A stretch of DNA of 10,078 nucleotides, taken from contig JBDGTY010000013.1 in assembly GCA_042216335.1 (NCBI GenBank), forward strand, positions 13,355 through 23,432, in the 5' to 3' direction. The stretch comes from Candidatus Nanohalobium sp. Lineage in GTDB: Archaea > Nanohalarchaeota > Nanosalinia > Nanosalinales > Nanosalinaceae. This document shows, one piece after another, positions 1,751-5,031 of this stretch (its first letter is position 1; each line of letters opens with the position of its first letter). The translations under genes were made by a program, and so were the position numbers. Below the pieces are notes generated by a model. That model did no database searches. It saw only the letters and a list, made by a program, of their open reading frames with translations, and had not been told where the DNA came from.

Positions 1751-2254
1751 TTATTCAAAGCTGATCTGGTAGTAGGTTCCTGTGATCTTCTCGATGATGT
1801 CCTCTAGTTCGTCCGTGGACATGTTGATCTTGCCCTCGAACTCCTCATCGACCACTACCTTCTTGTGCTCGCCTTCAGGAGCGAACACCGTGTTAACTGA
1901 CTCGATCTCCGCCGGGCTCAGCAGTCCTTTGATGACTTCTCGGTCGCTCTCGCTCTTCTCAACGACACGGATACTTTTCTCGATTTCTTCCGCGACTTTC
2001 TTTACTATTTCTCCGCTTCTGCCGACTACCTTGGCTCCGTCGCCTTCGGCAGTTACCACGACGACAACGTTTTCCGTGTCGTAGATGTGGAGGATCTCCG
2101 AGTCCCGGAGGCTTCCGTATTCGTCGCTGAGTTCTTTCAGCTTTCTTGAGATTTTGATCTCGAGTTCGTTGATCTCGCCGTTCTCCAGCTTCTCCTCGCA
2201 GTTGCTGCAGAGAACGTCGCTCTTCAGACATACATTACAGATTGGCGCCTTCAT
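1751..2254 (-). CDS. nusA: archaeal NusA-like protein (NusA2 type) with N-terminal C4 zinc finger and KH domain
   Basis: MKAPICNVCLKSDVLCSNCEEKL (CxxC-x6-CxxC), KH GxxG loop VVGRSGEIVKKV, IRVVE, LLSPA..ESVNTVF. ATG 2254 lies about 24 nt below a TTTAAT box on the minus strand. Confidence 0.85.
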   Translation of the reverse strand: MKAPICNVCLKSDVLCSNCEEKLENGEINELEIKISRKLKELSDEYGSLRDSEILHIYDTENVVVVVTAEGDGAKVVGRSGEIVKKVAEEIEKSIRVVEKSESDREVIKGLLSPAEIESVNTVFAPEGEHKKVVVDEEFEGKINMSTDELEDIIEKITGTYYQISFE

Positions 2255-2293
2255 ATACAAGTCCGCGTCGTGAAAAATTAAATAGGTGGAGAC

Positions 2294-2812: not shown

Positions 2813-2828
2813 TGTTAACAGTTTTTCG
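2813..2828 (-). promoter_or_regulatory. putative BRE+TATA promoter for the membrane-protein gene
   Basis: Minus strand CGAAAAACTGTTAACA, about 25 nt upstream of GTG 2788. Confidence 0.4.
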
Positions 2829-2829
2829 A

Positions 2830-3300
2830 TGCGGAAATCCCGGGGATTTTCCCGCAAACCGAAGATAATTCTTGTCCTGGATTTTTAGAAGATAAAGCCC
2901 GGTCGGGTGAACGCTTCCGGTGCAGGAAAAGGGGGGGAGGGGAGTGTTTTTCGAGATTTTTTCTCGAAAAGGTTCCTGCAGTCCTTCCACGTTCACCCAT
3001 CTGGGCTGTTGAAAATATTGTGTTTGGGAGGAGCCCGAGCCTGAAACAAAAAGGGGGGGGAGGGGAGTGTTTTTGCTTTGGGCTCATGACTCCTCCTAAC
3101 ATAGCGACGAAAATCGAAGATTTTCTGGAGTCGAAGACTTCTCTGTCTTCTGTGCCGAGAAACCTGTCAGGGTTTCGGCCCAGAAACCTTCGGTTTTCGT
3201 ACTTTAGGCCTCTAAGAGGCCCTTGCTGAAATCCTGGTGGACTCCAGCTTGGCGAAAATCCTCTCGGATTTTCTGGATTCACAAAATTCAAAGAGTTTTG
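2830..3300. ncRNA. putative structured non-coding element (RNA or ssDNA structure) downstream of ftsZ
   Basis: About ten hairpins or nested helices readable by eye (e.g. GGGTGAACG/CGTTCACCC, TGCAGGAA/TTCCTGCA, TTTTCGAGA/TCTCGAAAA, TGGAGTC/GACTCCA, GAAAATCC/GGATTTTC). No credible protein-coding ORF. Confidence 0.55.
2927..3074 (+). repeat. direct repeat AAAAG7-8AGGGGAGTGTTTTT, two copies (2927-2951, 3049-3074)
   Basis: Seen directly; the copies differ only by one G in the G-run. Confidence 0.95.
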
Positions 3301-3301
3301 A

Positions 3302-4372
3302 TCATCCGTTCATTACTTCCAGTCCGAGGTCGTTGACGTCGCCTGTGACTTCTGTCTCTGATTCTTCGTCGATGTCTCCGAGGACGTATGGGCTTTCCAC
3401 TCCTGTGATGATGGAGATTACCTGAATCTTACCCTGAAGTTCTTCCTTGACTCTTGCGCCCCAGATCGTCTGTGCCTGGTTGTTGAGTTTGGATTTGACG
3501 TGCTGCCCGACCTCGTTGATTTCGTTAAGTGTAAGGTCGTTGCCTCCTGCGACGTGGAGCAGTGCTCCGTTTGCGCCGTCGAAGTTGACGTCTAGCAGCG
3601 GGTTGCTTAGTGCTTCGTGGATTGCTTCCTTTCCTTTGTTGTTTGTATCTGACTCTCCGTATCCTACTACTGCTACGCCTCCGTCATTCATGATCGCCTG
3701 GACGTCTGCGTAGTCCAGATTGACGAGTGAAGGCTTTGATATCGTCTCCGTTATGCCTTTGATCATCGTGGTGATGAGTTCGTCGGCTACTCCGAATGCC
3801 TGGTCGAGAGGCATGTCTCCTGCGATATCGAGGAGTTTGTCGTTTTCAATAACGATCGCGGTGTCGACGTGCTGCCTCAGTTTGTAGAGACCATCTTCTG
3901 CCTTGCTCATCCTTGCGCCCTCGATCTCGAATGGCATAGTCACTGTTCCAATCACTATGCAGTCCTCCTTCTTCGCGATCTCTGCAAGTACAGGTGAGAC
4001 TCCTGTTCCTGTTCCTCCTCCCATCCCTGCGGTGAGGAAGACCATGTCAGCGTCCTTGAACAGGTTTCTCAGTTCGGCACGGTTTTCTTCGGCGGCACGG
4101 GACCCTGTCTCTGGGTCTCCACCTGCTCCAAGGCCCTTAGTCAGGTCTCTTCCTACCAGTATCTTCCTGTCAGCGGAAGACATCTCCAGGTGCTGCTTGT
4201 CTGTGTTGATTGCGACAGTCTCGGCACCTTCAACATCCTTGTTCTGGATACGAGTTACCTGGTTGTTCCCGGCACCCCCAGCGCCGACTACCAGGATTTT
4301 GGCATCTCTTACATCATCTAGGTTTTCCGAGGTTTTGGAGTCGTTTTCAGCGTTGTCGATTATAGATTCCAT
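3302..4372 (-). CDS. ftsZ: cell division GTPase FtsZ (archaeal FtsZ2-like)
   Basis: VVGAGGAGNN, NTDKQHL, GLGAGGDP, tubulin signature GMGGGTGTG, NLDYADV, IWGAR, C-terminal DLGLEVM. NTDKQHL, GAGGDP, LDYAD and GGVAV resemble haloarchaeal FtsZ2 more than FtsZ1. Confidence 0.97.
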   Translation of the reverse strand: MESIIDNAENDSKTSENLDDVRDAKILVVGAGGAGNNQVTRIQNKDVEGAETVAINTDKQHLEMSSADRKILVGRDLTKGLGAGGDPETGSRAAEENRAELRNLFKDADMVFLTAGMGGGTGTGVSPVLAEIAKKEDCIVIGTVTMPFEIEGARMSKAEDGLYKLRQHVDTAIVIENDKLLDIAGDMPLDQAFGVADELITTMIKGITETISKPSLVNLDYADVQAIMNDGGVAVVGYGESDTNNKGKEAIHEALSNPLLDVNFDGANGALLHVAGGNDLTLNEINEVGQHVKSKLNNQAQTIWGARVKEELQGKIQVISIITGVESPYVLGDIDEESETEVTGDVNDLGLEVMNG

Positions 4373-4442
4373 TGTAGTACCAGCCTTGCGTTTAGCACAA
4401 CCTTTTTAAGTGCAGAGACCTAACTCTACCTGTAGAAAGACT

Positions 4443-4600
4443 GAGTCTTGCCCAAGACTCGATACATGCCCAAATACTGATTCGAACTTTGCCCAAAGTT
4501 CGAGACTGATACCAAACGTTCAATCGTAATCTGTAAGCCCGTTTCGAACTCGTGCCCGCGAGTCGAAACATGAATCATGTCATCGTCCGCCCAAGGACGA
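4443..4600. ncRNA. array of GCCC(+)/GGGC(-)-loop hairpins; putative structured ftsZ 5' leader or sRNA
   Basis: GAGTCTT-GCCC-AAGACTC (4443-4460), weak ATACAT-GCCC-AAATAC (4462-4477), TCGAACTTT-GCCC-AAAGTTCGA (4482-4503), GTTTCGAACTCGT-GCCC-GCGAGTCGAAAC (4541-4569), TCGTCC-GCCCAA-GGACGA (4583-4600). Confidence 0.6.
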
Positions 4601-4636
4601 ATCAAATCTATCTTAAACTAACATTTCAACTCCCGC

Positions 4637-4651
4637 TTTATAAATCTTCTG
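4637..4651 (-). promoter_or_regulatory. putative BRE+TATA promoter for ftsZ
   Basis: TTTATAAA at 4637-4644, preceded by purine-rich CAGAAGA on the minus strand only; implies a transcription start near 4612. Confidence 0.5.
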
Positions 4652-4752
4652 TTACCTCGACGTTTCAACTCCACTGTTCACGAACGTTCACAGAACTGAA
4701 AACATTCCCTGCCCAGATTAATACTATAAGAATTCACACCTGCGAACTACCT

Positions 4753-5031
4753 ATGGTCGACGCAGAAGAAGTCAGACAGGTAGCGGAGAACGCCAGAATC
4801 AAGGTAGAAGATGGGGAAGCGGAAAACTTTGCAGAAGACTTCGAAGACATACTCGAGATGTTCGAAACACTCGACGAGATAGACACGGAAGGCGTCGAAC
4901 CAGCCTTCCACCCGGTAGAAACAGGATCCAAAGCCAGGGAGGACGAGGAAGAGGAGACGCTGGAAAAAGAAAAAGTCTTCCAGAATACCGAAAACGAGGA
5001 AGACGGATACTTCAAAGGCCCGAGTGCATAG
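4753..5031 (+). CDS. gatC: Asp-tRNA(Asn)/Glu-tRNA(Gln) amidotransferase subunit C
   Basis: 92 aa from ATG 4753: EEVRQVAENARI..., ILEMFETLDEIDTEGVEP..HP, RED, DGYFKGP. The ORF-track extension from 4552 is non-coding-like. Confidence 0.93.
   Translation: MVDAEEVRQVAENARIKVEDGEAENFAEDFEDILEMFETLDEIDTEGVEPAFHPVETGSKAREDEEEETLEKEKVFQNTENEEDGYFKGPSA

Follow-up and report, generated by a model that had tools for sequence, protein, structure and literature searches.

A conserved array of hairpins with UGGG-type loops before ftsZ is probably a cell-division control element of nanohaloarchaea

Hairpins between ftsZ and gatC

The window, by which we mean the whole 10,078-nt stretch of DNA that was analysed, comes from a nanohaloarchaeal genome of 1.02 Mb (74 contigs, 49% G+C, 96.2% complete). 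Two of its genes, ftsZ on the minus strand (3302-4372; Pfam Tubulin 1.5e-45, FtsZ_C 8.8e-31; TIGR00065 391 bits, above the cut-off) and gatC on the plus strand (4753-5031), diverge from a 380-nt spacer, and this spacer holds an array of small hairpins. The gene that bears the array is the ftsZ orthologue at 3302-4372; upstream of the second ftsZ paralogue of this genome (contig C52) no such array is found. A TATA-like box of gatC's own, (A/T)TTCAAAAA, lies at 4719-4730 in the window and recurs in homologues about 28 nt before the ATG, so the gatC message would be leaderless or nearly so, and independent of the array.

The first-pass annotation had listed five hairpins in the spacer, one of them weak, each with GCCC at its apex as read on the plus strand. 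Sequence reading, a repeat finder and folds of both strands confirm four of these, at 4443-4460, 4482-4503, 4541-4569 and 4583-4600, whereas the weak one at 4462-4477 proves to be a copy of the motif without a stem. On the ftsZ strand, where the plus-strand GCCC becomes (U)UGGGC, the loops read UUGGGC, GGGC closed by a U-A pair, or CGGGCA. Described on that strand, hairpin Ha (4583-4600; UCGUCC-UUGGGC-GGACGA) has 6 bp and a plus-strand loop of GCCCAA, and would be the first element of the leader predicted below. Hairpin Hb (4541-4569; GUUUCGA-CUCG-CGGGCA-CGAG-U-UCGAAAC) has 7 + 4 bp separated by a bulge, and its inner CUCG/CGAG helix is almost invariant in the family. Beside it, at 4537-4540, an additional GGGC falls outside any hairpin loop in our scans, and by eye some relatives carry CGGGC at the counterpart position. 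Hairpin Hc (4482-4503; UCGAACUUU-GGGC-AAAGUUCGA) has 9 bp and a plus-strand loop of GCCC; the repeat finder gives its arms as 4482-4491 and 4494-4503, 10 nt each and 100% complementary.

The stemless site UAUUUGGGCAUGUAU (4462-4477, minus strand), which is TGCCCAA on the plus strand, is unpaired in both folds and is degenerate or lost in the three genomes of the same genus. The last hairpin (4443-4460; GAGUCUU-GGGC-AAGACUC, 7 bp, plus-strand loop GCCC), whose arms at 4443-4450 and 4453-4460 are 8 nt long and 100% complementary in the repeat finder, is kept in the genus and in several further genera. Additional GCCC copies at 4537 and 4711, and the pentamer ACTGA at 4440, 4476 and 4505, are all present where they had been reported, the recurrence of ACTGA being confined by eye to the same genus. 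One further candidate, a stem closing the array through the CTTAGAA and TTCTAAG boxes at its two ends, was dropped on finding no covariation by eye.

This concentration of motif and stem is unusual for the genome. TGCCCAA occurs 33 times in all (16 copies on the plus and 17 on the minus strand), and three of these copies lie within 50 nt at the array. Among 1048 perfect hairpins in the genome with a stem of at least 5 bp and a 4-nt loop, only eight have GCCC or GGGC as the loop; the two longest stems in this set, of 7 and 9 bp, are both in the array, and the other six have 5. Folding of the array gives z = -4.38 for the plus strand (0 of 200 shuffles as good) and z = -2.05 for the minus strand (3 of 200). 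The array is real and lies far above chance expectation.

Conservation and covariation of the array

The spacer DNA is conserved in all three genomes of the same genus and in part in four other genera. We took the regions upstream of the ftsZ orthologue from 46 genomes of the family, 45 of which could be parsed, and all 45 share a single layout in which 224-292 nt separate the first TATA box from the ATG. This layout begins with TTTATAAA, about 10 nt and AGAAAATGTTAG, continues with Ha, Hb and Hc, and ends with one to three UUGGGC sites that are short or unpaired, a box TTCTAAGGTAGAATTA, a TATA box TTTAAAAAGG and ftsZ itself. The 46th locus (L123) has UGGGA hairpins too. A scan of the 45 loci finds 2-5 perfect hairpins and 2-7 motif copies at each, some sites retaining the motif without the stem, and the loops of the 152 hairpins scored include TTGGGC (41), TTTGGGCG (31), GGGC (27), CGGGCA (16) and GTGGGA (12).

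The arrangement extends well beyond the family. In all five families of the phylum that were examined, a TATA box is followed by 2-5 hairpins whose stems differ around a UGGG-type loop, and then by ftsZ; by eye this holds for 9 of 9 loci in family f3, 5 of 5 in f4, and the single loci available for f2 and f5. The loop drifts within narrow bounds: the f2 locus has UGGGCG sites, the f5 loop is UUUGGCGA, other lineages use UGGGA or UUGGCG, and some genera have GUGGGA or UUGGGA. Loops that varied among homologues had been named at the outset as a finding that would count against the array, and a UGGG-type loop is instead kept across five families. One record in the collection, L062, is a contig titled as a Colwellia polaris MAG that encodes an FtsZ 89% identical to the nanohaloarchaeal FtsZ of the window; this record is probably mis-binned or mislabelled.

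Since two loci that lack gatC upstream nevertheless keep the array beside ftsZ, we conclude that the array belongs to ftsZ. Its placement is equally specific in a set of 30 related loci of about 4 kb each, where 69 of 72 perfect hairpins with a TGGG[CA] loop on the ftsZ strand fall in the 300 nt before ftsZ and three lie elsewhere, and the opposite strand of the same loci has none. A model of three hairpins matches the window's own genome once, with its core at 4537-4606; the array occurs once per genome.

A genome-wide scan for stem-GCCC-stem hairpins, suggested earlier as a way to define a regulon, reveals no regulon in this genome. Hairpins with TGGGC in the loop account for 30 of 1041 copies of the motif genome-wide, a fraction like that of control 5-mers, and hairpins with GCCC or GGGC tetraloops are not enriched elsewhere. 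A hairpin CTGTT-TGGGC-AACAG with identical flanks does occur at two contig ends of the genome (C22:16 and C66:14436), and it is probably one repeat split by the assembly.

We next consider whether the stems are maintained as stems. RNAalifold recovers Ha and Hb from the plain alignment, with compensatory changes in 10 of 13 pairs. A covariance model built from the three hairpins and searched against the loci at E <= 1 matches 52 of 62, every time before ftsZ. In the resulting 52-sequence alignment, whose figures overstate independence, the sequences being related and the alignment model-fitted, 94.5% of cells pair, compared with 70.1% in shuffles and 24-45% in slid controls; double changes affect 21 of 23 pairs, the covariation score is 0.596 against 0.186, and the 260 double-change cells compare with 69.7 in shuffles, none of 500 of which equals that count. 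By helix, this same alignment has changes on both sides in 7 of 7 pairs of Ha (helix 1; 94.8% of cells paired), 5 of 7 pairs of Hb (helix 2) and 9 of 9 pairs of Hc (helix 3; 95.1% of cells paired). Many pair types are found per position, and there is thus little doubt that the stems were selected as stems. The earlier description of stems that differ around an invariant loop is borne out by both methods in homologous ftsZ upstream regions.

Two alternatives can be set against these results. It is scarcely credible that the array is a product of chance, the remnant of a mobile element or a small gene for a conserved peptide. The region does contain open frames of 39-73 codons, and a conserved peptide that explained the repeats had been foreseen as a competing account, but the longest frame changes strand and reading frame between genomes and no peptide is shared among the 45 sequences. 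A single copy per genome, at a place before ftsZ that is fixed across five families, likewise argues against chance or mobility.

An element acting as DNA, whether an array of protein sites, a set of cruciforms or a replication origin, is very improbable in our judgement. The location between divergent genes, the presence of other conserved DNA boxes and the scarcity of wobble bias in the stems would all suit such an element. Sites for dimeric DNA-binding proteins typically have conserved arms and a free centre. The array is the reverse of this, with arms that covary freely around a fixed, asymmetric centre; moreover, all of its copies point in one orientation, and no repeat family of this kind exists elsewhere in the genome. 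The idea of an origin was abandoned, as the sole Cdc6/Orc1 match of the genome (Cdc6_C) is on another contig, C18, and skew across the window tracks the direction of the genes.

Predicted promoters, strand and leader

The first-pass annotation had left the strand undecided between a leader of ftsZ, about 240 nt long, bearing UGGGC loops and transcribed from TTTATAAA, and a plus-strand RNA that starts near 4433 downstream of TTTTTAAG. The former fits best, while the latter also has promoter-like features that face the array.

On the minus strand, a distal promoter is predicted at 4614-4650. It consists of a BRE-like AGAAGA (4645-4650), the TATA box TTTATAAA (4637-4644) and AA at -11/-10 (4624-4625), with transcription predicted to begin at A4614, just after T4615. 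We aligned 57 sequences from four families, anchored on this TATA box. The fourth and third bases before the box are A in 56 and 57 of the 57 sequences, positions 20 and 21 from the anchor are A in 54 and 55, and T30 and A31 are kept in 47 and 48. Comparable conservation is missing from the non-ftsZ side of the box (mean information 0.27 versus 0.48 bits). Haloarchaeal promoters, as described in PMC2151090 (see also PMC6085418), have a BRE with AA and a TATA element centred near -27/-28, followed by WW at -10/-11 and transcription from a purine. If position 31 is taken as the start, these basal-promoter features are present at the distal element, and in the ftsZ direction only. This promoter geometry points to the ftsZ strand and to a start near A4614, and predicts an ftsZ leader of 242 nt.

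Would such a transcript continue into ftsZ? A run of five T residues occurs between the predicted start and the ATG in only 1 of 45 leaders, at 28% T, and we infer read-through from this near absence of U-runs. Many relatives do have a U-rich, UUAUUCU-like stretch after the last hairpin. This stretch resembles a sequence that is reported in PMC2151090 to terminate transcription in a haloarchaeon, and on this basis a separate small RNA may be produced.

The opposite orientation has its own candidate promoter. A second TATA box lies at 4403-4410, 31 nt before the ftsZ ATG, and reads TTTTTAAG on the plus and CTTAAAAA on the minus strand. Next to it, at 4420-4439, is a conserved box with the family consensus TTCTAAGGTAGAATTA, which forms the palindrome TTCTA-N3-TAGAA. 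Read on the plus strand, this palindromic box contains both the AA (positions 20/21) and the TA (30/31) of a promoter-like element directed at the array. Among 58 sequences read toward the array from the proximal TATA box, AA precedes the box in 50 and 53, AA is found at positions 20/21 in 45 and 55, T30 is kept in 47 and A31 in 38, which would place a start near 4433-4434.

An RNA from the gatC strand, beginning at about 4433-4434 from the TTTTTAAG box and displaying (U)GCCCAA loops, might act independently as a small RNA, or it might be antisense to the ftsZ leader and contact it by way of complementary loops. We regard this as unlikely, although several observations speak for it and correspondingly count against assigning the array to the ftsZ strand. 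The proximal box has promoter geometry in 38-55 of the 58 sequences and faces the opposite way, and the fold z-score is better on the plus strand (-4.38 versus -2.05). Furthermore, 784 of 833 internal stem cells are Watson-Crick, and stems so nearly pure would suit folding on both strands, as expected if both had to fold. Wobble counts disagree with one another: on the ftsZ strand, G-U to A-C stands at 93:38 in the model-fitted alignment, whereas two finders that make no distinction between the strands give 41:32 and 14:26, the last of these placing A-C ahead of G-U and so favouring the plus strand.

Against a plus-strand RNA, the box that provides its promoter features is palindromic and might just as well serve as an operator. 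Most tRNA promoters of the genome have TT(T)AAAA on the sense strand, in agreement with the proximal box as read toward ftsZ, and at loci that lack gatC the array is still found beside ftsZ. In addition, the C-rich loops behind ftsZ, described below, are on the ftsZ strand.

Transcription of the ftsZ unit may itself be regulated. Tandem GTGAAC(AGT) repeats, about 10 nt apart, occupy 4673-4695 on the minus strand, 30-55 nt upstream of the distal TATA box, and 32 of 45 family sequences (L010-L054) carry at least two TGAAC copies within 80 nt upstream of that box; the repeats look like a candidate transcription-factor site for the distal promoter. The palindrome at 4420-4439 could be an operator for ftsZ transcription or a part of an antisense promoter. 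Around the proximal TATA box, in the interval 4386-4439 of the window (alignment columns 312-345), an inverted repeat changes in step between genera (for example CTATACC/GGTATAG versus CTATGCC/GGCATAG) and is followed by a direct copy. This covarying repeat could be either an operator or an alternative RNA stem. Together, the GTGAAC repeats, the palindrome and the covarying repeat suggest that the ftsZ unit is under transcriptional control.

C-rich loops behind ftsZ and possible partners of the array

Directly after the ftsZ stop codon, a structured trailer extends over 442 nt on the same strand (2860-3301, minus), with a fold of -170.7 kcal/mol and z = -8.81. Its loops contain C-runs (ACACUCCCCUCCCCCCCC) at 3053-3060 and 2931-2937, two large loops read ACACUCCCCUCCCCCCC, and two of the eight C or G runs of at least 7 nt in the genome are located here. 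An open reading frame listed at 2815-3291 is probably spurious, given that its product is basic, of low complexity and without a family. C-runs of at least 5 nt occur within 400 nt after ftsZ at 39 of 40 loci from three families, where G-runs are nearly absent, and the f2 and f5 loci have C-runs after ftsZ too. In folds, 550 of 583 C-run positions are unpaired, compared with 44% of all positions. Thus ftsZ is bracketed on one strand by G-rich loops in front and C-rich loops behind. The latter, absent from the first-pass annotation, provide a possible RNA partner for the array.

Two features of the trailer are specific to this genome. A hairpin GGUUUC-UGGGCC-GAAACC at 3171-3188 (minus strand) bears the upstream loop motif and is found in the window's own genome only, among 30 loci. 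The sequence GCCCAAAG, the exact complement of the top of one array hairpin, was set aside as a pairing candidate on finding it confined to the same genome.

The complementarity between the two kinds of loop is short, namely GGG:CCC in the window's own family and 4 bp (UGGG:CCCA or UUGG:CCAA) in some others, and both the G-loop motif and the C-run motif are nearly invariant. Complementarity and co-location are what lead us to propose that they meet. Our preferred account, a tentative one whose prospects we judge a little short of even, is that ftsZ has a structured leader from about 4614 whose G-loops dock onto the C-loops of the trailer and thereby set the translation or stability of the message. 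Transcription from the TTTATAAA promoter would start near 4614, cross the hairpins and continue into ftsZ, giving the leader of about 242 nt. Each hairpin would display the same short G-run, UUGGGC, in a loop that opens with UUGG. According to PMC4485353, YUNR loops enhance RNA pairing in antisense systems; UUGG at the start of the loop fits the YUNR motif as given there, and such an arrangement would suit fast loop-to-loop pairing. The message would end in the strongly folded trailer, with its long C-runs in loops, and several G-loops could then dock onto C-loops, joining the two ends of the ftsZ mRNA. A loop-binding protein may assist this docking or compete with it.

Such a protein could also be the principal reader of the array. 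The loops of the ftsZ-strand RNA would then be protein sites, occupied by several copies or by one oligomer, with control of ftsZ if the protein binds the leader and titration of the protein if it binds a small RNA. We lean against this possibility, while giving it more weight than any other alternative to docking. In its favour, the loop is conserved throughout the phylum and 2-7 sites per locus are more than pairing purely in cis requires; some sites keep the motif without the stem, a trait of RNAs with many protein-binding sites; and the U-rich tract behind the last hairpin could end a small RNA. On the other side, no candidate protein was identified, and a titrated protein would be left without visible other targets, given that the genome has no further hairpins of this type.

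One gene product considered was a NusA-like protein of 169 aa with a zinc ribbon and a KH domain (1751-2260, minus strand; NF005013 E = 5.5e-43, below the cut-off; similar to PDB entries 9fjl and 9f9u), encoded by a second NusA-like gene of the genome. At 26 of 30 family loci this gene follows ftsZ, but it does so at none of the 14 loci of f3 and f4, two families that bear the array, and the protein was dropped as a general loop binder. A search for distant relatives of this protein returned only two close ones.

Comparison with known RNAs and proteins yields partial likenesses. Searched with cmscan on both strands, the whole window had no Rfam match at E <= 1, in keeping with the first impression that the array belongs to no known family. 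That first impression had also included a parallel with CsrB and RsmZ, which is sound as regards architecture: in both, a single short G-rich motif is repeated in the loops of numerous small hairpins, with some copies left unpaired. In contrast to these bacterial RNAs with GGA loops, the array has UGGGC, UGGGA or UUGGCG loops, belongs to an archaeon, is fixed before one gene and is probably part of that gene's mRNA. GGA is found in array loops only within UGGGA in a few genera, which falls short of the CsrB-type ANGGA motif, and the genome shows no regulon of such hairpins. With Pfam PF02599 (E <= 0.01), CsrA was detected in control genomes but had no match in this 96.2% complete genome.

Leader-binding proteins such as TRAP on the trp leader and HutP on the hut leader are multi-site readers of short motif copies in a 5' leader, and the array similarly offers several copies of a short motif in a putative 5' leader. 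The motifs of TRAP and HutP are unstructured and regularly spaced, whereas those of the array sit in hairpin loops at irregular intervals, and we know of no protein of the TRAP or HutP type in the nanohaloarchaeal phylum.

In the icaR mRNA of Staphylococcus aureus, a C-rich motif in the 3' UTR reportedly faces a G-rich motif in the 5' region of the same message, and the ftsZ locus also has a G-motif before and a C-motif after its coding region. The differences are that the ftsZ G-motifs sit in a series of hairpin loops, a good distance upstream of the ribosome-binding region, that the C-motifs are in loops as well, and that the contact we propose is many-to-many. The kissing RNAs that control plasmid copy number, as covered in PMC4485353, share with the array a YUNR-type loop start (UUGG). 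The array also resembles kissing antisense control in that promoter-like elements face each other across it, from which an antisense transcript might arise. Those RNAs are plasmid-borne and bacterial, and they have no need of one identical loop in every hairpin.

We consider it most likely that the array is a structured ftsZ leader whose identical G-loops serve as several docking points, with the C-loops as our first choice of partner and a protein as the second. A plus-strand or antisense RNA is a live alternative to this view. A bolder version is that the nanohaloarchaeal ftsZ message is looped by many-to-many contacts, in which GGG leader loops would engage C-run trailer loops much as anticodons do, so that a phylum-wide, RNA-only switch would govern division in these tiny symbionts. 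Release of the loop, by a loop-binding protein or through a facing antisense promoter, could then follow the state of the host. This version is speculative and we hold it as doubtful, slightly more so than a protein as the main reader of the loops.

The cis-regulatory RNAs known from archaea are very few, and to our knowledge none of them concerns cell division. A listing-level literature search found no earlier description of the ftsZ element, and the array is probably a previously undescribed control element for cell division. The covariance model is new and can be used for annotating nanohaloarchaeal genomes. An easily recognised pair of conserved RNA elements around ftsZ also offers a concrete handle, in the form of a predicted start, a predicted leader and loops to mutate. 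With their genomes of about 1 Mb and their dependence on life with haloarchaeal hosts, nanohaloarchaea are organisms for which the timing of division would be central to the symbiosis.
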